Shown here piece after piece: positions 2,003 to 52,353 of a stretch of DNA of 64,000 bases (the stretch's first letter is position 1; each line of letters starts with the position of its first letter). The stretch is taken from positions 1 to 64,000 of IMG/VR virus record IMGVR_UViG_3300022821_000013; one strand, 5' to 3'. Source of the DNA: a virus. The notes under the pieces are model-generated. The model worked only from the letters and a program-made list of their open reading frames with translations. It searched no databases and was not told where the DNA came from. Position numbers and translations under genes: made by a program.

Positions 2003-2512
2003 TTATTCCTTCTCTTTAATTATTTCTACATCAAATCCAATTAATTCACATATTTCTTTATGAGTTAATCTTTTAACTTCTTTAGGTCTGTTATCTATTA
2101 TAGTTCCATCACTATCTTCATGATAAATTAGATTGTTATTAGAATCAAATTCTCTTTTTGACCAATCTCCATCACTATCTTCATAATAAATTTCATTATT
2201 ATTAGAATCATATTCTTTTATATAAAAGAATCCATTAATATCCTCATGATAAATTTCATTACTATCAGAATCATATTCTCTTTTTACCCAATTTCCATCA
2301 TTATATTCCCAATAAATTTCATTATTATTAGAATCAAATTCGCTTTTTACCCAAAATCCATTACTATCTTCACGATAAATTCGATTATTATTAGAATCAA
2401 ATTCTCTTTTTACCCAAAATTCATCATTATATTCCCAATAAACCCATTTATTATTTGAATTGTATATATTTATTTCATCAGTTACATTGATATATAATAT
2501 TTTAAGTTTCAT
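2003..2512 (-). CDS. 23-aa tandem repeat protein with C-terminal RLTHKEICELIG module
   Basis: Same N-terminus and repeats, plus the tail shared with the 26-28 kb paralogues. Confidence 0.9.
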   Translation of the reverse strand: MKLKILYINVTDEINIYNSNNKWVYWEYNDEFWVKREFDSNNNRIYREDSNGFWVKSEFDSNNNEIYWEYNDGNWVKREYDSDSNEIYHEDINGFFYIKEYDSNNNEIYYEDSDGDWSKREFDSNNNLIYHEDSDGTIIDNRPKEVKRLTHKEICELIGFDVEIIKEKE

Positions 2513-2518
2513 TTTATT

Positions 2519-2707
2519 TTATTTTATAAAATATCGTACTAAATACACACGATTCACAATCGAGAGTTCATTGAGTTCCAAAATCATAATGTTATTTGGA
2601 TAAGAAGATTTATGTGTATTGTATACACGTACAAGCAACTTATCTATTATATTTGATAAATTGTGGTTATTGGTATTGTATATACATTTAAGTTTCATTT
2701 TATACAC
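2519..2707 (-). CDS. hypothetical protein
   Basis: 62 aa ORF tiling between neighbours. Confidence 0.55.
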   Translation of the reverse strand: MYKMKLKCIYNTNNHNLSNIIDKLLVRVYNTHKSSYPNNIMILELNELSIVNRVYLVRYFIK

Positions 2708-2943
2708 TCATGTTTTTGCTTTATGAGTTGTTGTAATTCTACATTCTTTTCTGCAACTATTCGTTTACATTCATTTCGGTATATAGTAGCTTTATCCCAT
2801 ATAGTTTCTTCATATCCGTGCGTTGGAAGCTCATATCTAGTATTTAAAATGGTTTCTAATTCATTTATTACCATTTCACACTCAAATATATCTTTATCAA
2901 TTCCAGTTAATCCGTCATCGATGGTTGAGTAAAATTGTGTCAT
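2695..2943 (-). CDS. hypothetical protein
   Basis: 82 aa ORF directly downstream of promoter 2969-2999. Confidence 0.7.
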   Translation of the reverse strand: MTQFYSTIDDGLTGIDKDIFECEMVINELETILNTRYELPTHGYEETIWDKATIYRNECKRIVAEKNVELQQLIKQKHECIK

Positions 2944-2968
2944 ATTAAATCTAATAATTAATAATATA

Positions 2969-2999
2969 CAAACTTACGAAATTAAATTGATATAAACAA
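2969..2999 (-). promoter_or_regulatory. Bacteroidota-type promoter
   Basis: TTG-N20-TAAGTTTG on minus strand. Confidence 0.8.
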
Positions 3000-3031
3000 A
3001 TTTTATTTTAATGATATGTTAAATTTAAAAG

Positions 3032-3053
3032 TCGAAGTATAGATGTACTTCGA
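3032..3053 (-). terminator. hairpin ending tRNA cluster 1
   Basis: TCGAAGTA-N6-TACTTCGA inverted repeat followed on the minus strand by CTTTT, right after the last tRNA. Confidence 0.55.
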
Positions 3054-3058
3054 AAATG

Positions 3059-3143
3059 CGGAAATAAAAGGAATCGAACCTTCATCTCGTTTTCACGATT
3101 GACTCTTTAGCAAAGAGTTTGCTACACCAATTGCCGTATTTCC
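3059..3143 (-). tRNA. tRNA-Ser(GCT)
   Basis: Acceptor GGAAATA/TATTTCC, anticodon arm ACTCT-TTGCTAA-AGAGT, long variable arm, TTCGATT T-loop, G73; atypical D-arm. Confidence 0.85.
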
Positions 3144-3155
3144 ATTTTTTTAGTG

Positions 3156-3242
3156 TACCGGTAGGAAGATTTGAACTTCCAAGTGTATCTTCGTTTACCC
3201 ACGAGTCTAAATCGCGTGACTTTACCATTTGTCTATACCGGT
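3156..3242 (-). tRNA. tRNA-Leu(TAG)
   Basis: Acceptor ACCGGTA/TACCGGT, loop TTTAGAC, long variable arm, GGAAG-TTCAAAT-CTTCC. Confidence 0.88.
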
Positions 3243-3249
3243 AGATTTG

Positions 3250-3323
3250 TGGACACATATCGGATTTGAACCGATAACCCCCATATTGCAAGTATGGTGC
3301 TTTCCCAATTAAGCTAATGGCCC
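3250..3323 (-). tRNA. tRNA-Ala(TGC)
   Basis: CCATA-CTTGCAA-TATGG anticodon arm, canonical D and T arms; acceptor stem has a bulge. Confidence 0.8.
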
Positions 3324-3329
3324 ATTATT

Positions 3330-3386
3330 GTATGATATATCATTCATATTATATGGATTATATGTTATATGAATGACATATCATAC
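3330..3386. repeat. 20-bp inverted repeat (long hairpin) between tRNA-Gln and tRNA-Ala
   Basis: GTATGATATATCATTCATAT ... ATATGAATGACATATCATAC, one G-U pair on the minus strand. Confidence 0.8.
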
Positions 3387-3391
3387 TAATG

Positions 3392-3463
3392 TTGAGTGGG
3401 GTGGGGTCGAACCACCGAATGTCGGCTTCAAAAACCGATGCCTTACCACTTGGCTACCACCCA
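3392..3463 (-). tRNA. tRNA-Gln(TTG)
   Basis: TAGCCAAGTGGTAAGGC D-arm, TCGGT-TTTTGAA-GCCGA, GGTGG-TTCGACC-CCACC. Confidence 0.88.
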
Positions 3464-3471
3464 ATATATTG

Positions 3472-3544
3472 TACGAATGAATGGATTCGAACCATCACTG
3501 AACGAGGTTTAAACTCGATCCCTCTTCCGTTGGGGTACATTCGC
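3472..3544 (-). tRNA. tRNA-Leu(TAA), short variable loop
   Basis: Acceptor GCGAATG/CATTCGT, loop TTTAAAC, 5-nt variable region, TTCGAAT T-loop. Confidence 0.78.
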
Positions 3545-3553
3545 ATTTTTGTT

Positions 3554-3638
3554 GTAGGTGGTGAGAGATTCGAACTTAGCTATAGTATGAACTAACCAGA
3601 TTTACAGTCTGGCTGGGATCTCCAACTCCCGTACGACG
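3554..3638 (-). pseudogene. degenerate tRNA-Tyr(GTA)
   Basis: Perfect anticodon arm CCAGA-CTGTAAA-TCTGG and TTCGAAT loop, but T-stem and acceptor stem do not pair; boundaries approximate. Confidence 0.65.
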
Positions 3639-3646
3639 CATTAAAG

Positions 3647-3733
3647 AGGAAGTTGGGGCAGTCGAAACCCCATTGCCTTATTAGGGGCTTAGCTGTTTTC
3701 AAAACAGTTTGCTACACCAATTGCTGAACTTCC
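3647..3733 (-). tRNA. tRNA-Ser(TGA)
   Basis: Acceptor GGAAGTT/AACTTCC, loop TTTGAAA, long variable arm; shares the atypical D region GCAATTGGTGTAGCAAACT with Ser(GCT). Confidence 0.82.
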
Positions 3734-3735
3734 AT

Positions 3736-3775
3736 AAAAAGAAAAAATCTCGTCTATTTTATTAGAGGAGATTTT
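3736..3775 (-). terminator. intrinsic terminator of attenuator 1, upstream of tRNA cluster 1
   Basis: AAAATCTC-C-TCTA-ATAAAA-TAGA-C-GAGATTTT followed by TTCTTTTT, immediately 5' of the first tRNA. Confidence 0.8.
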
Positions 3776-3806
3776 ATTTCATATTCATTATATAATTTTA
3801 TTTTAT

Positions 3807-3920
3807 CTAATTAATAACATAAATATCCCCTACCATCGAATCCAGAGCAGTCGCTAACGACCACAATGTGATTGGTTGTAATATACTCGGTTGTTGATAT
3901 GTTATTATTGTATTTTTCAT
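3807..3920 (-). CDS. putative attenuator leader peptide 1 (37 aa, MKNTIITYQQPSILQPITLWSLATALDSMVGDIYVIN)
   Basis: ATG 3920 to TAG 3807 read by hand; contains G-ending codons TCG, GCG, CTG, CCG, GGG; ends ~30 nt before a terminator. Confidence 0.7.
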   Translation of the reverse strand: MKNTIITYQQPSILQPITLWSLATALDSMVGDIYVIN

Positions 3921-3959
3921 CTTATATATAAATAGAGATAAGTTTCTCGTAAATTAATT

Positions 3960-4097
3960 ATATCGATATGTTGGACTCGATACCAACAAAAACGATTCTC
4001 CCACGCACGTCAACCCACATAAAACTTAATCTAATAAGAAGCACTGACTCCTACTTTACTTATGTTAGGCGTGTCTATCTTTCACCAATATCAATAT
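3960..4097 (-). ncRNA. unidentified tRNA-like RNA with D-like and T-like arms and a large central insert
   Basis: Closing stem ATATTGATAT/ATATCGATAT, 5' TGGTGAAAGATAGACACG, 3' GTTGG-TATCGAGT-CCAAC; no ORF; flanked by a 20-bp perfect inverted repeat. Confidence 0.5.
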
Positions 4098-4100
4098 AAA

Positions 4101-4406
4101 TTAATTTACGAGAAACTTTTCTTTATCTAAAGTTGCTAATACCCTATAAAATAAAATCCCATTTTCAGTTTTGAATTGAACCTTAATCGGTCTAATACTT
4201 CTTGTTCCTGTTCTGATGGATTTTGTTACTTGTTCTGTACCATCATTATCTATAAAAGTAAGTTCATATCCCAATTGTTCACCATAGACCATAGAATCTA
4301 AATTAAACTTAGTATCTGTTTCTTCCCAATTACCATATGAAGATATTTCATCTTCCACTGTAGATTCTGTTATGAACCTTTTAAATTTATCGAATTCATT
4401 TGTCAT
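4101..4406 (-). CDS. hypothetical protein
   Basis: 101 aa ORF, ATGA overlap with upstream gene. Confidence 0.75.
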   Translation of the reverse strand: MTNEFDKFKRFITESTVEDEISSYGNWEETDTKFNLDSMVYGEQLGYELTFIDNDGTEQVTKSIRTGTRSIRPIKVQFKTENGILFYRVLATLDKEKFLVN

Positions 4407-5332
4407 TGTACATTCCCTATATATTTAGTGTCTATATGACATCCATCTTGTTCTATATTATCTATGCTTATTATCAATATACTACCGATAACATTAAAAT
4501 AAAACGTAGTATTTTTATTCGTACCTTGTATTTCATATCTAATATTCATATTCTCACTGGTCAACGCTATAGTAGTAGTTGAACCATGAGATTCACAATT
4601 ATAGTCATCATGATCATCTTGTATTTCTATAGTTTCAAATCCTACTAAATGAGATTGCAAGAATTGAATTACTTGTTGAAAATTGATTCTTATATTATCA
4701 ATTAATAAACATGTAGTGTCAGCATCTGGTTTTATATAATCGCTTACTTGTAATTGTTTCGTTTTACCATTATACGACATAAACTTTATATATTCATCGT
4801 TATAATCATCTTTTATTTTTATAGTTCTTATTTGTTTATGCTCATTATACAATTTAGTATTTATATGTGTTTTTATCTTAGTTAATCTATCATTTAAAAC
4901 TTCATATTTAGACACTAAATCATTTAATACAGATAACCATTCTTCAAATTGACTTATGAATTTATCTATATCTTCTATCGTAGAAATGGAAAATGTAATT
5001 GATTGTAATTTGTCAAGTTGTTTCCACTTTGGGAATTTGTAAGAATGATACTCATCATAACAACACCCATAACCGTATCTATTGTGTAGACTTCTAAGTG
5101 GTTTAACTTCGATTGTAATTCGTTCGTCATTATTATTATATGTTACATCTATATCACCAAAATCTTGATAATTACCAATTATACTAAAACCGTCTGTGTT
5201 ATAGCTATTACGTTCCATAGATTCTGTAATTGCATTCCAAAATAGTTTATTATGTGTTTTATTTCTACATAAATCATATAATATAGTTGTTAAACTTATA
5301 GTTTTACTTTCATTCTTCTTCTTCCAGAACAT
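4403..5332 (-). CDS. hypothetical protein
   Basis: 309 aa ORF, no recognised motif. Confidence 0.8.
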   Translation of the reverse strand: MFWKKKNESKTISLTTILYDLCRNKTHNKLFWNAITESMERNSYNTDGFSIIGNYQDFGDIDVTYNNNDERITIEVKPLRSLHNRYGYGCCYDEYHSYKFPKWKQLDKLQSITFSISTIEDIDKFISQFEEWLSVLNDLVSKYEVLNDRLTKIKTHINTKLYNEHKQIRTIKIKDDYNDEYIKFMSYNGKTKQLQVSDYIKPDADTTCLLIDNIRINFQQVIQFLQSHLVGFETIEIQDDHDDYNCESHGSTTTIALTSENMNIRYEIQGTNKNTTFYFNVIGSILIISIDNIEQDGCHIDTKYIGNVQ

Positions 5333-5368
5333 TTTTACTCTCTTTTTTTTAATGTATTCTTAATATGT

Positions 5369-5839
5369 CTATTTAACTAAGTCATCTCTTAATTTAGTTA
5401 AGACCTTTCCTAACAAATTTAAACCTAACCACTGTTCAGGGTCTTGTGCTCTTGGATCATCTTCAAGTAAACCAATACCCCAAATCTTATCACATGGAGA
5501 AGCATCAACTAAAGTTTTATCTTTAGTATCAAGTAATTTATTTAATAATTTTTCGTTTTGTGTGAACTTTGCATGGTTTCCTTTATATACAATTTCTTCA
5601 CATACAACTGACCATTTTTCAGCAATGAAATTTGAAACTTCTCTACCTAGTTTCTTCTGTTGTTTTGGATGTAAAGTATTCATAATCTTTGAAGCAGTTA
5701 ATTCATCACCAAAGAATAAAGCCTTTTGTTGCATCATATACTGTTCTGTACAATTATACATATCACCATCTATTTCAAATTTACAAGGATGCCATTGACT
5801 AAATGGCCCTGACCAGAAAAATTCATAATTCTCATTCAT
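5369..5839 (-). CDS. NADAR family hydrolase (YbiA-like)
   Basis: PFSQWHP, TEQYMMQQKALFFGD, KKLGREV, AKFTQN, ASPCDKIWGIG, GLNLLGKVL motifs. Confidence 0.92.
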   Translation of the reverse strand: MNENYEFFWSGPFSQWHPCKFEIDGDMYNCTEQYMMQQKALFFGDELTASKIMNTLHPKQQKKLGREVSNFIAEKWSVVCEEIVYKGNHAKFTQNEKLLNKLLDTKDKTLVDASPCDKIWGIGLLEDDPRAQDPEQWLGLNLLGKVLTKLRDDLVK

Positions 5840-5875
5840 AATGTTATTTTTTTAATATCGTTTAAAATAATAATA

Positions 5876-5906
5876 CAAACTTACGAAAAAATAATGATAT
5901 AAACAA
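5876..5906 (-). promoter_or_regulatory. Bacteroidota-type promoter
   Basis: TTG-N20-TAAGTTTG. Confidence 0.8.
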
Positions 5907-5909
5907 ATT

Positions 5910-6389
5910 TTATTTTCTATTAGCTATTAAATCAGCTGCACACGTTGCAGCAGGTGCATTTGGTTTTGCAAATACATCAAACCCTAAACTTTTAAGCCAA
6001 CCTACAGCCGCAGGATATGCTATATTAGATTTATATTTAGCTTCTGAATTTAAATCGATATGGATTTCTACAGGTTCTTGTAAAATATCTTGTATTTCTT
6101 CGGCTATACATTTAGATTTCTCTACTTCAGTCCAAAGCATTTCAAATATAGATAATTCTTTTTTATGTTTATCCATAGAATATATTAAATGAGCACCTTT
6201 ATTGTATCCATCAGTTCCATAATAAAACATAGCTATCACGGTAACATAAATAACTTTTTTAGATGCCTTCTTATATTTTGAATCCGATCCAACTGCTATT
6301 TTAGCATCAGGATTCATTTCAATGAATTTCTGAACATGTAAAATCCAATCATCAATTATTTCGTTTGTTTGGAATGTCTTGAAATACAT
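5910..6389 (-). CDS. RNase H-like YkuK (DUF458) family protein
   Basis: IAVGSDS, LWTEVEKS, VEIHIDLN, KPNAPAATCAAD motifs. Confidence 0.85.
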   Translation of the reverse strand: MYFKTFQTNEIIDDWILHVQKFIEMNPDAKIAVGSDSKYKKASKKVIYVTVIAMFYYGTDGYNKGAHLIYSMDKHKKELSIFEMLWTEVEKSKCIAEEIQDILQEPVEIHIDLNSEAKYKSNIAYPAAVGWLKSLGFDVFAKPNAPAATCAADLIANRK

Positions 6390-6407
6390 ATATACCTTAG
6401 TTTAAAG

Positions 6408-6480
6408 AGGTGAATCCCAGATTCGAACTGGGGTAAACGAGTTTGCAATCCGTTGTCTGAAACCACTCGACTAATTCACC
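6408..6480 (-). tRNA. tRNA-Cys(GCA)
   Basis: Acceptor GGTGAAT/ATTCACC, U73, loop TTGCAAA, CCCAG-TTCGAAT-CTGGG. Confidence 0.85.
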
Positions 6481-6493
6481 ATTATTATATTTT

Positions 6494-6566
6494 GTACCCA
6501 AGGTAGGATTCGAACCTTTATCTCCAATTGGAGGTAGGATAATGTTGCCAATTACACCAAATGTAC
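6494..6566 (-). pseudogene. degenerate tRNA-Gly(TCC)-like
   Basis: TGGTGTAATTGGCAACA D-arm, loop CCTCCAA, TTCGAAT; acceptor and T stems only partly paired. Confidence 0.55.
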
Positions 6567-6578
6567 ATTTCTAACGAG

Positions 6579-6652
6579 TTGACCTGGACGGACTTGAACC
6601 GTCGATCTTCGAATTATGAGTTCGCTGCTTTGACCAACTAAGCTACAGATCA
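6579..6652 (-). tRNA. tRNA(CAT), probably Ile2 (lysidine type)
   Basis: Acceptor TGATCTG/CAGGTCA, GCGAA-CTCATAA-TTCGA arm without the initiator GGG/CCC; Ile2 versus elongator Met is an inference. Confidence 0.8.
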
Positions 6653-6659
6653 ATATTTG

Positions 6660-6734
6660 GGTGAATGATGGGCTACGATCCCACGACCTTCGGTTTCACA
6701 GACCGACGCTCTAACCAACTGAGCTACAAACACC
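6660..6734 (-). tRNA. tRNA-His(GTG)
   Basis: G-1:C73, TCGGT-CTGTGAA-ACCGA; non-canonical T-loop ATCGTAG and two acceptor mismatches. Confidence 0.8.
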
Positions 6735-6745
6735 ATAATAAAAAG

Positions 6746-6829
6746 TTGCGGAAGACAGATTCGAACTGTCATTATACTTCTCGTCTCTGGGTTATGAGCC
6801 CAGGATGTTAACCATTACACCATTCCGCA
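6746..6829 (-). tRNA. tRNA-Met(CAT), initiator-like, with expanded variable region
   Basis: CTGGG-CTCATAA-CCCAG (three G-C pairs), acceptor TGCGGAA/TTCCGCA, 16-nt variable region AGACGAGAAGTATAAT. Confidence 0.8.
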
Positions 6830-6837
6830 ATAACTTG

Positions 6838-6910
6838 TGATCTTACAGGAACTCGAATCCTGATTGCAACTTCGAATGAGTTGTGTCCTAACCATTTAGA
6901 CGATAAGACC
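6838..6910 (-). tRNA. tRNA-Glu(TTC), non-canonical anticodon loop
   Basis: Glu-like body (TCGTCTAAATGGTTAGGAC), CAACT-CATTCGA-AGTTG with A33 and G37. Confidence 0.78.
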
Positions 6911-6920
6911 GAATTATAAA

Positions 6921-6958
6921 TAAAAAATCCTTCAGTGTTTTAAGTTGAAGGATTTTTA
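6921..6958 (-). terminator. intrinsic terminator of attenuator 2, upstream of tRNA cluster 2
   Basis: AAAAATCCTTCA-N11-TGAAGGATTTTTT, ~10 nt before tRNA-Glu. Confidence 0.85.
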
Positions 6959-6983
6959 TAAATTTTTAGAAATGAATTTATTA

Positions 6984-7070
6984 TTATGCCCTTCGTACAT
7001 ACACCCCAAACCCACACTCAACGTGTATATTAGGTCTAAAGCTATTCATATGTTTATTATTACGAGTCAT
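6984..7070 (-). CDS. putative attenuator leader peptide 2 (28 aa, MTRNNKHMNSFRPNIHVECGFGVYVRRA)
   Basis: ATG 7070 to TAA 6984 read by hand; codons CAC GAG TGT GGG GGG clustered; ends ~25 nt before the terminator. Confidence 0.7.
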   Translation of the reverse strand: MTRNNKHMNSFRPNIHVECGFGVYVRRA

Positions 7071-7131
7071 TATTATCTTTTTAATTTTACTTCTATTAAT
7101 AAATAGAGATACGTTTTTTGTAAATTAATTA

Positions 7132-9237
7132 TTATTTTATATATTTTGAATTTATAGTTAGAACATCACTTGCTCTAACAACATTTTTATTATCTAACGT
7201 ATCATCCTCATACTCATCCGTAACATATAGCATATCAGCGTTATCAATGTCAAATGTTAATTGTGATGGTGCATAGTACATACTAAATAAGTCTTTTAAT
7301 GTAGTTTTATCAGTTAGATTAACTATAGACCTTAACACATCAGATACATTCACATCATTATTGATAACTGTGTTATGATGCATACCACCATTTCTAAAAT
7401 ATAAATCAGTCCAGATTATCTGTTTAGTTTCAATATCAAAGATAAATGGAACTGCTACCTTAGAATTTCCATCTAATTTCATAGAATACTTAACTGTTTT
7501 AGGATCATAAATCTCATTTGAATTAGGACGTTCTCTTAGCATAAAACCTGCGAAACATTCTTTATGTTCTTTAAATGTTGGGCCACTATAAACATTTATA
7601 TTTAATGTTATATATCTAACTTCTGATTTTACTACTTTATTCATAGTTATATCAATAAATTCAGATGCTCCATTTGGTGCTCGTGTAATATCACCAGAAT
7701 GTACTATTTCTAATTCTTTAATTTTTAATTGTTGAAATGAACAATGAGTTACCATTTCAAATTTATCATTATATAATGTAGCTGACAAATCAATATCTTG
7801 TCCTATCCAATGACAAAACATTCGTAAAGTTATATTTTTATTTTTATCTTCTAAATCAATCTTAGATCCTCTACCATAAGAGAATTGACCTTCCGATACA
7901 CTTCTTTGTTGTGTAGGTAATGTATATTGACTTAATCTTTCATCTATATATACTTTCTTACCTTCTGACGTTCCTTGTAATCTCAATCTTAAATGTGAGT
8001 TTATACAATTTAGATAGTCTTGTACTAATTGCAATTGCCAATCTGTAAATTTCTTAAATTGCACTCTTCTAACTTTAGATGTAGAACCTTTAGGAAATAC
8101 TAATCTACTATCATAACCTTTTAATATAACTTGTAAGTGTCCTTTAGCTTGTAATAATACTCGTGTTGATACTTCTGATATACATTCTTCTAAATTATCA
8201 ATACCTAATTTACCAGAGTTATATCCATCAGAGATATTAATTAAAGTTACTATGTTTCTTACGTATTCACCTGGTTTCTTCATTAGAGAATTAATAGCTG
8301 AATGATAGTCTTTATTTTTTAAAGATTCATTTATAATAGTGCTTAAACTCTCTACATTTTTATTATTTCTAAATGATCTCAATACATCTGAAAATTTGGA
8401 TTGTTTTAGAAATTCACCACAATGTAATGAATGTGTTAATTTAATCCATTTATTTTTATGTCTCTTGAAGTCATCTACGTTAAACACTTTATCAAGTCTA
8501 TTAGTTATTCTACGTCTAAGACTTTTAGATAATGATTTAAACTTGGTATTTTCAGTTAATGATACATCACCACCAGATAGATATGTACAGTAACGTAGTA
8601 TATCAGTTGGTGTTTTGAGTAATTCTAAATTATCAGTATATTCAACTACATAACATAAGTTTTCTTTATATGGAATATTTATAGTATTAATATCATATAT
8701 CTCTCCAAAGTGAGCTATTAATACCTTAACTGATTCCTTATCGAAATCAGATAGAGAATCATTAGTAGATAATAAATCACATAATATTTCTATCATACCA
8801 TTAATATCTATTATACCTATACGTTTGAAGTTTAATACGTCAATATCAGTTTGTCTTGGCTTTTTATCTATATCTGGATAGTATTCGCCTAATGACAAAT
8901 AATGTATTATAGCGTTAAAGTATAGCTCAAATTCAGACATATTATAAACTTCTTCTGGGAAGTTTGGATAAAATGTTTTATATGAACGTGCACCTTTAAA
9001 TTCTTCCAATATAAAAATTATATCAATTAAATTTAAGTTATATCGTAATACAAGTTTAAGTAAATGAGAATCTATCGTATAACCCAAATTATTCAATATT
9101 TGGTTATATGCTATAGTCTCTTTTATTGATTGTTTGTAATTATTAATATCAATATCTTCTAATACTGTAGAAGATGAGTCCATTATGAATATAGATGATC
9201 TATATTTTAATGCTATTTTTAATAGGTCTTTATTCAT
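7132..9237 (-). CDS. Ro/TROVE-like helical protein with C-terminal TerD domain
   Basis: N-terminal YKTFYPNFPEEVYNMSEFELYFNAIIHY, TPTDILRY, KPGEYVR motifs; C-terminal TerD signature DIDLSA...HSGDITRAPNGASEFIDI. TerD domain is well supported; Ro-like N-terminus is from family recall. Confidence 0.75.
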   Translation of the reverse strand: MNKDLLKIALKYRSSIFIMDSSSTVLEDIDINNYKQSIKETIAYNQILNNLGYTIDSHLLKLVLRYNLNLIDIIFILEEFKGARSYKTFYPNFPEEVYNMSEFELYFNAIIHYLSLGEYYPDIDKKPRQTDIDVLNFKRIGIIDINGMIEILCDLLSTNDSLSDFDKESVKVLIAHFGEIYDINTINIPYKENLCYVVEYTDNLELLKTPTDILRYCTYLSGGDVSLTENTKFKSLSKSLRRRITNRLDKVFNVDDFKRHKNKWIKLTHSLHCGEFLKQSKFSDVLRSFRNNKNVESLSTIINESLKNKDYHSAINSLMKKPGEYVRNIVTLINISDGYNSGKLGIDNLEECISEVSTRVLLQAKGHLQVILKGYDSRLVFPKGSTSKVRRVQFKKFTDWQLQLVQDYLNCINSHLRLRLQGTSEGKKVYIDERLSQYTLPTQQRSVSEGQFSYGRGSKIDLEDKNKNITLRMFCHWIGQDIDLSATLYNDKFEMVTHCSFQQLKIKELEIVHSGDITRAPNGASEFIDITMNKVVKSEVRYITLNINVYSGPTFKEHKECFAGFMLRERPNSNEIYDPKTVKYSMKLDGNSKVAVPFIFDIETKQIIWTDLYFRNGGMHHNTVINNDVNVSDVLRSIVNLTDKTTLKDLFSMYYAPSQLTFDIDNADMLYVTDEYEDDTLDNKNVVRASDVLTINSKYIK

Positions 9238-48303: not shown

Positions 48304-51300
48304 TCACCCACATTTACTAGAGCCACAATCTAAACAAGTAAGACACCCATCCTGATATGCTAAATTTGTGGATTTGCATTCGGAACATTCATGCCCAGTT
48401 ACAACTTCCAAATCATTTATATATCGTTTAAGTATACGTTTAACACCTGATTTCCATGATGTTATAATATCACCATCTAAATTAAGACCATCTAATAAAT
48501 CAACCACATATTTGATTGGCATACCATGCCTTAAAATAGCACTTACAATTCTACTAACATCATCGAATTCCTTAATCCCATACATTTTCAAATCAATAGT
48601 TGTAATTCTATCATCACCCTTCATATATATAAATATATATTCTGATTTACCGTTTATTTTGGTTCGTTCAATCCAACCATTAGTAACATTATTAAGATTA
48701 AAATCTATATTATCAACTGGAATGGTAAATAGTTCGTATGGCTTATCATTATATAATCCAACAAAACCAAACCATTTAGTACCATTAGATGTAAAATGAA
48801 TAACATCACAATTTATTGTTTTGGGTCGTTTTGGTGCTTTAGTATCTTCAAATAAATCAATTTTAGTATCATTATTTGAAATTAAAACTCCACTACGAGA
48901 TCCATCTCTATATATAGTACACCCCTTACATCCACTTTCCCAAGCAGTCAAATATATTTTATCAACTGTATCCTCATCAATATCATTTGGTAAATTAACC
49001 GTTACTGATATTGAGTGATCTACCCATTTCTGTATTTCACCTTGCATCTTAACTTTCTCCACCCAATTAACATCATTTGATGTTGCTTTATAATATGGAG
49101 ACATAGATATTATAATATTAATCGTATTTTCATCTAAACCTACAAGATATTCTTTACATTGATTATAATCCCATGATTCACTTATAACATCATTAGTTAT
49201 ATTAGAACGTATGTCATTCTGATTGTAAAAGAACCAATCTATGAATTTATGGTGAAATACATTAAATTCCATCCATTTATCACCTAATTCATCTACAAAA
49301 TCAACACGTGTATTTCTATCAGTTGGATTTATTTTTCTTCGTCTTCTATATGAAACTAAAAACACAGGTTCAACCCCAGATGAAGTCTGTGTCATCATTG
49401 ATACAGTTCCAGTTGGAGCAATAGTTAGTAACCCAATATTACGTCTTCCATATTTCAATAAGTCATCTTTTATAGATGGGTCAGATTCTAATATCCTATT
49501 TATAAATGGATTGTCTTTCTCTATATCCCAATCCCATATTGGAAAATTACCTCTATCTTTTGCTAATTGAACTGATTCCCTGAATACATTTATAGCATAA
49601 CGTTTATGAACTTCTACTGAAAATTCAGTAGCAGGTGGAGTTCCATATATTAATCCCATAGCAGCTAACATATCACCTTCACCAGTAACACCTATACCAG
49701 TTCGCCTACCCATCTCACATTTATATTTAATTTTAGTCCATAAATCAATTTCAGTTTGCTTGGTATTAATATCTTCAGGGTCTAAATTTATTTTTTCTAA
49801 TATAGAATCAATTTTTTCTAATTCCAAATCAACTATATTATCCATTATTCTCATAATATATTTAGAATGTTCATCGAATAATTCCCAATCAAATTCAGCG
49901 TGTTTTGTAAATGGATTTTTAACGTAACTATATAAATTTAAAGCAGTTAATCTACAACTATCATATGGAGGTAAAACAATTTCACCACATTGGGCAGTGA
50001 ATACACCTATCATATTATTATGTCCAATTGAATTTTCTTTTATATCAGTTATAAATGCCAATGTATGATTATCATCAACAGTTATATTATATACATCTTC
50101 ATAACCATATATCTCTACAGATTTTACTTTGTGGTTATAATCAATGGATTTATATTTTAATTCTTTATATGTTTTAAATGGTGAATTAGGTCCAAATCTA
50201 AATGGAATATTATTTGTTTTACATCGTTCCTCCCACTCTACTTTGAGTGGGGTTCTATCCAATTCAAATTTCAAATCAGAATATATCTTAATTTGTAAGT
50301 CTTTATGTTTAATTTTAGTATCACTTGCTTGTCTACGAAGACCATTTAAATTAGAGTTATCTGGTTTAGACCATGAATTCAAAGTAGAACATTTACGTGA
50401 ACAAAATGTAGACTCTTTTGCATCATACGTAGTGTGGAATTCAGAGTTGCAATTTTCACATTTTTTATTAATGTAAACCTTACCTGTATCTATAAATACA
50501 TCCAAATTCAAATCCATACCTTTATGTAATGTTTTAACTACTCTAGGATCAACATCATTATATTCACCAAATCCAAGTTTATTTGCTGCCCACACTGATA
50601 AATCGTTTAAATCATACCCTAAAGTATCAACTCTCCATTTTGATAATGACTGTGGTATACCTTTCGATTTAGCAAATGTTGACCATTCCTTATAAGAAAA
50701 TCTTCTTCTGAGTGTACTCGTTAAATCCAACGCATATTCTTTAATGTCTTCATTTGTAAATCCAGAGTATTTTCCATTCTTTTCTCCTTGTGTATCATTA
50801 TCAGCATGATACTTGGCATGTTCTCTGAATGTCATAATCTCTAGATTATCAGGTGAATTATTTAATCCATTATAATCTTTATGATGTACAACCAAGCCAC
50901 CATTAACCCAACCATTAACCTTATTTGCATTGTATTTTTCAGACCATAATTCTGGATTGTTATATTTAGCAATTAACTTATGCTCAAATAATTTATCAAT
51001 CGTAGAATCTTTGGTATTAGTATTAATTCTATAATATGGATTAGTATTATTCTTTGATATGCGTTCTGAACGTTTAGTAAACCTCATTAAACTATCACCA
51101 CATTTCAAATCCTTAGCCTCTATTTTAGTACCATCATATAATAAAAATTTATGATTTGTAGTTGTCTTAATAGATGAGCCATCATCAAGTGTTATTTTTA
51201 GAATTTGTCTATCATTAACAGTTAGTCTTGGATTCCTACCCATTTTAATATCTACTTTCCCAGTGATTGGATCTACACTATAAACAGGAACATCTTCTCC

Positions 51301-52353
51301 AATCTCAGCTAATTCTCGTATAGGAACACTATTTCTACCATCTGCAACCGCAACTAATGTATCCCCAGTCACACATGGATTTGTACTTACATCTCCAAAA
51401 CCATATTCTTTATAACAATTACCAATTGATTCAGATAACATTTTATCCCAAAACATTACTCCTGGTTCTGCACTATTCCAAGCATTATGAATTATTTTAG
51501 ACCATATATCCCTTGCTATTATTTTATTTCTTAATTCAGTCCCATCATTATATTTAAAAACTAAATCATAACATATTTTATTCTCTAATTCATCAAGTTT
51601 AGTCTGTTCTGAATCAGTTATATCTAATTTATCACGTAACGTTTTATATAAATCTACATCTTCTTGGTTTGTTCGTTTGACAATAAACATAAATTCATCT
51701 AACATTTTAACTGATACATTAGCACCAGTTACCTTACCACTTTCCATTTTAGCATCTATAAAATCACCTACATCTGGATGCGAAACCAAAATAGATAGCA
51801 TAAGTGCACCTCTCCTACCATCTTGACCAACTTCCCTTGTAGAATTTGAATATCGTTCCATAAATGGAACTACACCTGTGGATGTTTTAGCTGAATTGTT
51901 CACAGGGCTATGTTTGGGTCTTATATGAGATAAATCATGACCAACCCCAGCTCTCCTCTTCATTAGATGTACTTGTTCTTCATCTATTTTAAGTATAGAT
52001 CCATATGAATCTTCATCATTACCAATAACAAAGCAATTACTTATACTTATAGTTTGTAAATCATTTCCTATGCCAAACATAGGACTTCCTTGTGGGATTA
52101 TATATTTAAATCTATCAAATAAATTGAAATAAAAAGCTGAATCCTTCGCATTTGGATATTTATTATCGATTCTAGAAATTTCATCCGATAACCTCCAATG
52201 CATATTTTCTGGATTTAACTCATAATAAATATTATCTTTATTCAATGAATATTTCGAAATCCAAGTTGTGGCTGAAATATCTTCATTGTTAAAATAGTTT
52301 TTTGTACTTTCTAATAAATCATCGTATGAATATGTATTCTGACTTATATCCAT
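48304..52353 (-). CDS. nrdJ: class II (B12-dependent) ribonucleotide reductase with intein
   Basis: SNCFV, QDGRRGALM, AEPG, TNP[intein]CGE, TIAPTGT, KGCTIYRDGSR, C-terminal TSCPD-like domain and Zn ribbon; no small subunit adjacent. Confidence 0.93.
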   Translation of the reverse strand: MDISQNTYSYDDLLESTKNYFNNEDISATTWISKYSLNKDNIYYELNPENMHWRLSDEISRIDNKYPNAKDSAFYFNLFDRFKYIIPQGSPMFGIGNDLQTISISNCFVIGNDEDSYGSILKIDEEQVHLMKRRAGVGHDLSHIRPKHSPVNNSAKTSTGVVPFMERYSNSTREVGQDGRRGALMLSILVSHPDVGDFIDAKMESGKVTGANVSVKMLDEFMFIVKRTNQEDVDLYKTLRDKLDITDSEQTKLDELENKICYDLVFKYNDGTELRNKIIARDIWSKIIHNAWNSAEPGVMFWDKMLSESIGNCYKEYGFGDVSTNPCVTGDTLVAVADGRNSVPIRELAEIGEDVPVYSVDPITGKVDIKMGRNPRLTVNDRQILKITLDDGSSIKTTTNHKFLLYDGTKIEAKDLKCGDSLMRFTKRSERISKNNTNPYYRINTNTKDSTIDKLFEHKLIAKYNNPELWSEKYNANKVNGWVNGGLVVHHKDYNGLNNSPDNLEIMTFREHAKYHADNDTQGEKNGKYSGFTNEDIKEYALDLTSTLRRRFSYKEWSTFAKSKGIPQSLSKWRVDTLGYDLNDLSVWAANKLGFGEYNDVDPRVVKTLHKGMDLNLDVFIDTGKVYINKKCENCNSEFHTTYDAKESTFCSRKCSTLNSWSKPDNSNLNGLRRQASDTKIKHKDLQIKIYSDLKFELDRTPLKVEWEERCKTNNIPFRFGPNSPFKTYKELKYKSIDYNHKVKSVEIYGYEDVYNITVDDNHTLAFITDIKENSIGHNNMIGVFTAQCGEIVLPPYDSCRLTALNLYSYVKNPFTKHAEFDWELFDEHSKYIMRIMDNIVDLELEKIDSILEKINLDPEDINTKQTEIDLWTKIKYKCEMGRRTGIGVTGEGDMLAAMGLIYGTPPATEFSVEVHKRYAINVFRESVQLAKDRGNFPIWDWDIEKDNPFINRILESDPSIKDDLLKYGRRNIGLLTIAPTGTVSMMTQTSSGVEPVFLVSYRRRRKINPTDRNTRVDFVDELGDKWMEFNVFHHKFIDWFFYNQNDIRSNITNDVISESWDYNQCKEYLVGLDENTINIIISMSPYYKATSNDVNWVEKVKMQGEIQKWVDHSISVTVNLPNDIDEDTVDKIYLTAWESGCKGCTIYRDGSRSGVLISNNDTKIDLFEDTKAPKRPKTINCDVIHFTSNGTKWFGFVGLYNDKPYELFTIPVDNIDFNLNNVTNGWIERTKINGKSEYIFIYMKGDDRITTIDLKMYGIKEFDDVSRIVSAILRHGMPIKYVVDLLDGLNLDGDIITSWKSGVKRILKRYINDLEVVTGHECSECKSTNLAYQDGCLTCLDCGSSKCG
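49990..51375 (-). mobile_element. 462-aa intein with HNH endonuclease, Gln-terminated
   Basis: Begins CVTGDTLVAV, block B TTNHKF, HNH VHHKDYNGLNNSPDNLEIM, block F VYNITVDDNH, ends FTAQ/CGE. Confidence 0.92.

Follow-up and report, generated by a model that had tools for sequence, protein, structure and literature searches.

Two clusters of transfer RNA (tRNA) genes in a virus genome lie behind the same arrangement of parts, and we see about an even chance that each cluster is gated by a ribosome-mediated (leader-peptide) transcription attenuator reporting the supply of its own tRNAs. The stretch analysed here (the window) comprises the first 64 kb of the 93,250-bp IMG/VR virus record IMGVR_UViG_3300022821_000013, for which CheckV gives a completeness of 48%. 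Its G+C content is about 27% and its long open reading frames (ORFs), its genes, lie on the minus strand. Twice, once per cluster, a shared motif is followed by a short ORF, a hairpin with a U-run and the tRNA genes. These parts, their order, the match between the codons of each ORF and the tRNAs behind it, and alternative pairings of the leader RNA in silico are all observed. The features of leader 1 and tRNA cluster 1 are as follows (dG, folding free energy; the host-type promoter class is described further below).

3902-3961, minus strand: shared 60-nucleotide (nt) motif, copy 1, ahead of tRNA cluster 1; 78% identical to 7132-7073
3807-3920, minus strand: short ORF 1, candidate leader peptide; 37 codons plus TAG; MKNTIITYQQPSILQPITLWSLATALDSMVGDIYVIN
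3821-3830, minus strand: candidate antiterminator 5' strand of leader 1; GGGGAUAUUU; codons 31-34 of ORF 1
3745-3775, minus strand: terminator hairpin of leader 1; core UCUCCUC/GACGAGA with A and U runs on either side, then UUUUUUCUUUUU
3734-3747, minus strand: U-run of the leader-1 terminator, read from the sequence; adjoins the first tRNA
3646-3733, minus strand: tRNA-Ser(TGA); ARAGORN at relaxed threshold only
3554-3639, minus strand: degenerate tRNA-Tyr(GTA)-like sequence; ARAGORN at 80% threshold only
3544-3471, minus strand: tRNA-Leu(TAA); ARAGORN default and Rfam
3463-3391, minus strand: tRNA-Gln(TTG); ARAGORN default and Rfam
3323-3251, minus strand: tRNA-Ala(TGC); ARAGORN default and Rfam
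3242-3155, minus strand: tRNA-Leu(TAG); ARAGORN default and Rfam
3143-3058, minus strand: tRNA-Ser(GCT); ARAGORN default and Rfam
3032-3053, minus strand: hairpin closing tRNA unit 1; dG -8.6 kcal/mol, z -5.8
3009-2966, minus strand: host-type promoter for the next gene, following the closing hairpin of cluster 1

An earlier note on this DNA had described, in minus-strand order, a promoter-like motif, a 37-codon ORF at 3920-3807, a terminator and tRNA genes, and all of these are present. Its list of leader codons is also exact: ORF 1 contains TCG x2, TAT x2, TTA x2, TTG, CAA x3, GCG, GCT, CTG and AGT, and no codon for His, Glu or Cys. The encoded peptide has a hydrophobic stretch, ILQPITLWSLATAL. 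The terminator hairpin has a dG of -10.9 kcal/mol (z -3.8; 0/200 shuffles fold as well) and forms in the minimum-energy fold of the whole leader; the tRNA genes start one base past its U-run. Five tRNAs of the cluster are solid, with ARAGORN and Rfam in agreement (Leu-TAA, Gln, Ala, Leu-TAG and Ser-GCT). Ser(TGA) forms a good cloverleaf, in which the acceptor stem has 7 bp, the T arm is good and the variable arm is long; its 5' half and that of Ser(GCT) share 81% identity. In the Tyr(GTA)-like sequence the acceptor stem is interrupted by two C.C mismatches and the T stem hardly pairs, so that this is probably a decayed gene; Rfam gives no match for it at E<=1. Between tRNA-Gln and tRNA-Ala (3330-3386) lies a 25-bp hairpin, 88% complementary and without a U-run, for which Rfam returns only a chance microRNA match.

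Leader 2 and tRNA cluster 2 repeat this layout with a different set of tRNAs.

7073-7132, minus strand: shared motif, copy 2, ahead of tRNA cluster 2; box CTATTTAT at 7106-7099
6984-7070, minus strand: short ORF 2; 28 codons; MTRNNKHMNSFRPNIHVECGFGVYVRRA
6989-6994, minus strand: candidate antiterminator 5' strand of leader 2; GAAGGG; covered by a ribosome on the stop codon
6923-6957, minus strand: terminator hairpin of leader 2, then UUUUUUAUUUAUA; dG -11.8 kcal/mol, z -5.7
6407-6910, minus strand: tRNA cluster 2; Glu(TTC), Met(CAT), His(GTG), Met(CAT), an odd tRNA-like stretch at about 6570-6490, and Cys(GCA)

ORF 2 encodes a basic peptide of 28 residues; it holds two His codons and codons for Met, Glu and Cys, and none for Leu or Gln. 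ORF 1 and ORF 2 are the only ATG-started ORFs of at least 25 codons in their leaders, leader 2 having in addition an overlapping 25-codon frame that starts with GTG. In both leaders the hairpin with its U-run separates the ORF from its tRNAs and ends 1-12 nt ahead of the first of them. The leader-2 hairpin was picked up by the terminator scan on the plus strand because it is symmetric. Within cluster 2, a 'Gly(TCC)' gene obtained no credible ARAGORN call even at a 60% threshold. The tRNA-like stretch at 6490-6570 carries a palindromic CTCCAATTGGAG in place of an anticodon arm and likewise gives no credible tRNA call. The first CAT tRNA (6745-6829) measures 85 nt; it includes an extra arm of about 14 nt, and three G:C pairs form the base of its anticodon stem.

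The codons of the short ORFs fit the tRNAs behind them better than chance, though modestly so. Three nulls were applied: random codons at the usage of the phage, windows of its real genes, and its other small ORFs. ORF 1 covers 7/7 anticodons of cluster 1, and full coverage is reached in 1.7% (strict wobble) to 6.5% of null cases; with gene windows, all seven are covered in 1.7% (strict wobble) to 4.7% (lenient) and the five solid ones in 6.2%. The earlier claim that all seven anticodons find a codon in the leader is correct as to coverage, but two of the seven are less secure, Ser(TGA) being called at relaxed threshold only and Tyr(GTA) being structurally defective. ORF 2 (27 codons in this comparison) covers 4/4 canonical specificities of cluster 2 (Glu, Met, His and Cys), full coverage occurring in 3-4%. 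Full coverage in both leaders has a probability of about 0.002 (Fisher-combined about 0.014).

No solid anticodon of its own cluster is missed by either ORF, and codons of the opposite cluster are scarce in both; the odds ratio of own- versus other-cluster codons across both ORFs has a p of 0.006-0.014 against random pairs. The match exists only in the real reading frame. The other two frames of the same DNA lack it, and for ORF 1 they contain stops and reach an anticodon coverage of 5/7 and 4/7. Matching codons are bunched as well: in ORF 1, 13 fall within codons 8-28 (scan-corrected p 0.03, or 0.007 without Tyr), and in ORF 2, 5 fall within codons 7-19 (p 0.10). Both groups belong to the ORF body and precede the antiterminator strand.

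The same figures bear on the idea that the short ORFs are real small proteins (37 residues, hydrophobic, and 28 residues, basic) with terminators of their own and no regulatory meaning, which we regard as improbable. Promoter, ORF and a terminator 26-31 nt past the stop codon are the normal layout of a small gene, and a hydrophobic peptide of the ILQPITLWSLATAL type would have many Leu, Ser and Ala residues and few Glu regardless of function. However, the coverage remains unusual even against the other small ORFs of the phage (p 0.03 and 0.04), and neither peptide has a family match in PHROGs. Moreover, the short gap between U-run and tRNA leaves no room for the promoter kinds of this genome, and the tRNAs therefore still need read-through.

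Folding in silico gives each leader an alternative to its terminator. We folded nascent RNA ending ahead of the terminator 3' arm and represented the ribosome by a block of 30 unpaired nt; sequences complementary to the terminator arms were compared with random 72-nt windows of the genome and with local shuffles. A stretch near the leader end had been said to pair with the terminator 5' arm, and this pairing appears in the minimum-energy fold of nascent leader 1: GGGGAUAUUU (3830-3821) pairs with 3775-3765 of the arm, which has a mean pairing probability of 0.68. The duplex amounts to -8.9 kcal/mol (p 0.022 against genome windows, 0.11 against local shuffles). In leader 2, GAAGGG (6994-6989) pairs with UCCUUC of the terminator 5' arm at a probability of 0.8-0.99 (p 0.046 against genome windows). 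At about 7 bp plus A-U pairs, the terminator stems are short, and a 6-bp competitor is therefore of comparable strength. In leader 1 the G-rich pairing persists when the modelled ribosome is stalled at codon 12, 20 or 24. In leader 2 it persists for a stall at codon 20, whereas a stall at codon 12 leaves the arm paired with a different upstream segment; once the modelled ribosome has reached the stop codon of that leader, the antiterminator is lost and formation of the terminator becomes possible.

We infer the start of transcription, the translation of the ORFs, the stalling and its effect on termination as follows. Transcription would start at a phage promoter within the shared motif, leaving ORF 1 leaderless or nearly so and giving ORF 2 an A-rich leader of about 22 nt. 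When the ORF is read fast, the ribosome at its end would sit on the G-rich stretch by the stop codon, the weak hairpin with its U tail would form and most transcripts would end just ahead of the first tRNA. A ribosome that lacks a tRNA of its own cluster would stall in the body (codons 8-28, or 7-22 in leader 2) and leave the G-rich stretch free. This stretch could then pair with the pyrimidine core of the terminator 5' arm, and RNA polymerase would continue into the tRNA genes. The outcome would be negative feedback on tRNA supply, separate for each cluster.

tRNA genes are generally taken as constitutive or controlled by growth rate. Why phages carry them is debated, the main ideas being codon compensation and escape from tRNA-cleaving defences. 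If the proposed mechanism holds, it represents a new use of attenuation that makes phage tRNA supply self-correcting, as well as a compact programmable sensor for the availability of specific tRNAs. It predicts that a shortage in decoding Ser, Leu, Gln or Ala opens leader 1 and that a shortage of His, Glu, Cys or Met opens leader 2. The trigger proposed at first, cleavage of host tRNAs by anticodon nucleases, is speculation, for which the sequence offers nothing beyond RNA-related neighbouring genes. Simple feedback on tRNA supply in the course of late, A+T-rich translation would suit the locus just as well.

Two promoter classes are found upstream of genes, one of the Bacteroidota host type and one built around a phage box. 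The host-type promoter reads TTTG-N19-TAAGTTTG, and its core GTAAGTTTGTA occurs 11 times in the record, intergenic every time. Its copies can also be written AAAATTTG-N19-CGTAAGTTTGTA; the 11 intergenic ones lie ahead of early or middle genes. The phage late-type box, T[AC]TATTTAT, is 34-fold enriched intergenically and mostly precedes structural genes; in that position it can also be given as TATATTTAT(A). In three large late genes (starts at 88306, 77569 and 66133) the ATG comes only 4-6 nt past this box, and these mRNAs are therefore probably leaderless. A sigma-70 promoter scan was uninformative (26 sites against 33.5 expected); the genome uses the Bacteroidota-type and phage-specific boxes instead. 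The further features concerned are given here.

2966-3009, 5873-5916, 1063, 10614, 12560, 28893 and 40587 (window positions): host-type promoter examples, intergenic
4085-4129, plus strand: inverted third motif copy (upstream part); arms 90% complementary to 3973-3929

The promoter-like motif of the earlier note is real and more specific than had been claimed, being common to both clusters. Only three copies exist in the whole 93-kb record, where 0.01 would be expected in the window. Copy 1 includes the late-type box CTATTTAT at 3935-3928, 7 nt ahead of the ATG of ORF 1; in leader 2 the distance from box to ATG is 28 nt. By analogy with the leaderless late genes, the spacing at ORF 1 makes leaderless translation plausible.

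The third, inverted copy concerns leader 1. In a minus-strand read-through transcript, 4085-4129 and 3929-3973 pair as a stem of about 45 bp, and the fold of 4135-3920 reaches -60.5 kcal/mol (z -5.5). This inverted repeat could serve as a site where an RNase III-type enzyme cuts the leader-1 transcript loose from the mRNA upstream, or else as a paired site for protein binding. It encloses about 110 nt of G+C-richer sequence, and leader 2 has no such partner. When metagenomes were scanned with the motif, none of the 11 matches adjoined tRNAs. On one unrelated contig with 33% G+C (Ga0102917_1004464; L089:1621-1646) a near-identical motif, TTTACGAAAAACTTGTCTCTATTTAT, stands directly after a terminator and 32 nt ahead of a protein gene. 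The tRNA-leader motif may, on this sequence likeness, be a promoter type common to a wider phage group.

A number of results weigh against attenuation at these leaders. The overall enrichment of matching codons in the ORFs is weak: 14/36 against 27% expected, with p about 0.08-0.09 for the codon-usage nulls and 0.38 for the small ORFs. Where the earlier note had asked about random ORFs, coverage is modestly above chance but enrichment against small ORFs is not. The ORFs are also much less pure than the leaders of phage phiCbK, which are treated below. There are two leaders only, and the statistics are modest (p 0.002-0.1), were picked after the pattern had been seen and depend on one another. 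Both the terminator and the antiterminator state are predicted, as had been anticipated, but the latter is not significant against local dinucleotide shuffles (p 0.06-0.27 for pairing probability, about 0.10 for duplex energy).

The fit of the ribosome adds to these points. When parked on the stop codon of leader 1, the modelled ribosome masks no more of the helix than its A-U part and leaves the GGGG core, 18-21 nt ahead of that codon, just outside its reach; the geometry in the model is good for leader 2 and imperfect for leader 1. In addition, the leaders have no region 1:2 pairing, and lack of translation would therefore give read-through, unlike in trp. Taken together, the attenuation geometry put forward earlier is supported in part, by a layout found twice, a codon match in the real frame and antiterminator folds in both leaders, and is weakened by modest statistics, the imperfect ribosome fit in leader 1 and one defective tRNA.

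On the same side stand the host-type promoters (TTTG-N19-TAAGTTTG), which drive operons running into both hairpins with no terminator in between. This speaks for a plain or factor-controlled terminator, which we consider rather unlikely: the hairpins would end the upstream early and middle operons together with a short transcript from the motif promoter, the ORFs being incidental. The tRNAs would then be made by leaky read-through, or by way of a phage factor that makes RNA polymerase resistant to the terminator. In lambda, the 194-nt transcript from pR' halts at tR' until Q acts. The leaders contain a conserved promoter spacer and a unit of about 175 nt that ends at a terminator, which would fit a lambda Q-type module, the distance from motif box to terminator being about 170-180 nt in both. 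The spacer of the motif keeps 14/17 positions and recurs nearly unchanged before the L089 protein gene, which suggests a site bound by a factor, and weak stems with large loops suggest partial termination. However, a terminator alone leaves unexplained the coverage of the own cluster, the avoidance of the codons of the other, the restriction to the real frame and the G-rich complements to the terminator arms. An antiterminator gene was not identified either, though no systematic search for one was made.

A further observation of this kind comes from leader 2, where the U-run continues into TTATTTATAA (6923-6914), ending 5-6 nt ahead of tRNA-Glu. This run matches nearly the box T[AC/T]TATTTAT of three late genes, as it would if the tRNA clusters had starts of their own that bypass the hairpins, with late transcription from the tRNA itself. 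We find this very improbable. Leader 1 has no such box, its run reading TTCTTTTTAT, and in a genome of 27% G+C a likeness that follows a U-run has a real possibility of being due to chance. The codon match would also go unexplained.

The comparison with other phages points the same way as these objections. Among 78 IMG/VR loci (L004-L081) of other large phages carrying a TerD/Ro-like protein, a hairpin with a T-run lies just upstream of only 23/288 tRNA clusters. For upstream short ORFs in other large phages, whether the nearest or the best is taken, agreement with the tRNA sets does not exceed that of permuted pairs. No general signal emerged from unbiased testing of 35 and of 170 tRNA clusters from such phages (p 0.43 and 0.07, then 0.2). 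The covariation of leader codons with anticodons that the earlier note had suggested looking for in phage tRNA arrays is, against permuted pairs, not seen as a general feature of these clusters. The match between leader codons and tRNAs is not a general property of phage tRNA clusters.

A comparable design does occur in phiCbK-like phages (Dolichocephalovirinae), at the loci given here.

L083:2741-2878 and 4540-4640, and L084-L088: phiCbK-like leader loci

In phiCbK, a promoter TTGACA-N17-TAGGGT is followed after 6 nt by the ATG of a 32-codon ORF, MSKTYRQFVRQIQVVRNIRAGRSRMADEGFRD; 25 nt past its stop codon comes a strong terminator, and then Phe, Val, Ile, Ile, Val, Gln and Gln tRNAs. A leader ORF of 31-32 codons, starting about 6 nt past a TTGACA-N17-TAGGGT promoter and trailed by a terminator, is kept in phiCbK, CcrSC, CcrBL10, CcrPW, CcrColossus and Brevundimonas phage Kikimora (examples among the relatives begin MMTYRNNVQQIRVRQFN and MMTYRQNVQNIRVVRFYRAGRS). 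Each leader contains a run of about 15 codons drawn solely from Tyr, Arg, Gln, Phe, Val, Ile and Asn, in an order that is shuffled between genera. These seven amino acids are those of the tRNA blocks of these phages, which also hold Asn, Arg and Tyr tRNAs; the block behind the terminator runs Phe/Tyr-Val-Ile-Val-Gln-Asn-Arg. A second phiCbK leader, gp083, has 45 codons and covers all ten anticodons of its block. GenBank annotates the phiCbK terminators and gp083, not the 32-codon ORF. A literature search found no paper on phiCbK-like tRNA leader ORFs or on such control of tRNA genes.

Judged from these sequences, a composition that is kept while the order is not is what a sensing leader should show. 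The design is conserved across genera of phiCbK-like phages, and the attenuation mechanism is therefore credible in the present genome. Both sets share a promoter, a leaderless or near-leaderless ORF of 28-45 codons, a terminator 25-31 nt past the stop codon and a tRNA block; within the ORF, a head of 4-7 codons is followed by a body made from the amino acids of the block and a tail able to pair with the terminator. Differences are that the phiCbK-like body is almost pure (about 15 consecutive codons) and kept in five or six genera, whereas its purity here is 62%, and that the promoters are of sigma-70 type there and use the phage late-type box here. In sequence the two sets are not similar. 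By analogy, the phiCbK-like leaders raise the prior probability of such a device at the present locus, despite the much lower purity of its ORFs. We give slightly less than an even chance to the wider proposition that phages control their own tRNA genes by leader-peptide attenuation through a tiny 'test' ORF, with the window as an independent instance alongside the phiCbK-like ones, in a phage of a Bacteroidota-type host that has two separately tuned sensors and one dedicated promoter motif.

Leader-peptide attenuators are familiar from amino-acid operons (trpL, hisL, leuL and pheL, and the multivalent thrL and ilvL). The present leaders resemble them in having a promoter-near short ORF with the sensed codons, an intrinsic terminator ahead of the regulated genes and an alternative pairing that captures the terminator 5' arm when the ribosome lags; as in the ilv and thr leaders, several kinds of codon would be sensed together. 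They differ in that the sensed codons are scattered (13/21) rather than in tandem runs, and in belonging to a phage and a Bacteroidota-type host. The regulated genes here are tRNAs, not biosynthetic enzymes, and the loop would therefore sense tRNA supply and not amino-acid supply. In T-boxes, which regulate synthetase genes and amino-acid genes, the uncharged tRNA is bound by the leader itself and no ribosome takes part. T-box leaders are likewise transcription attenuators that read tRNA status, but the locus matches no T-box model: a cmscan search of 2500-7500 against Rfam at E<=1 returned only tRNAs and chance matches, and no leader, T-box or riboswitch.

Other systems share single aspects with the present one. 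Mycobacterial leaderless polycysteine short ORFs serve as ribosome-stalling sensors that control the downstream genes of their operons (Canestrari et al., bioRxiv 10.1101/834739). The likeness lies in the use of a leaderless short ORF as stalling sensor; in contrast, the mycobacterial ORFs act on translation, by unmasking a ribosome-binding site, and respond to one amino acid with protein-coding targets. In the trn operon of Anabaena PCC 7120, a supernumerary tRNA array is mostly silent and is induced when translation is impaired (PMC8421152). This array is reported to be under a transcriptional repressor protein, TrcR (PMC10272220). On that description its purpose would be similar to that proposed here and its mechanism different, with a repressor instead of a leader ORF and terminator, and the array is cellular and plasmid-borne.

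Close relatives of the window were not found in IMG/VR scans with the neighbouring 309-aa and 701-aa (amino-acid) proteins and the motif, nor in metagenomes. Of the 877 homologues of the 701-aa TerD/Ro-like protein, all but the protein itself are at most 41% identical. GenBank phages gave tRNA-level matches or proteins at most 31% identical, and no relative. The identical sequence is present in several salt-lake metagenome runs, and no RNA run was among those listed as carrying it. Contigs of four salt-lake DNA runs include long pieces identical to the window and provided no usable variants, the remaining differing letters falling in tRNA genes on short, unlike contigs. An identical 701-aa protein is encoded on five contigs, the longest of 134,590 bp.

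The gene for this protein (window 7132-9237) neighbours leader 2, and in most large phages carrying it, it lies within or beside tRNA gene regions. A YkuK-like gene follows cluster 2 without a promoter of its own. Elsewhere in the window, the gene for the ribonucleotide reductase large subunit (1349 aa, 48304-52353) has HNH-endonuclease matches at about residues 427-657, between reductase parts, which suggests an intein or an inserted homing endonuclease.

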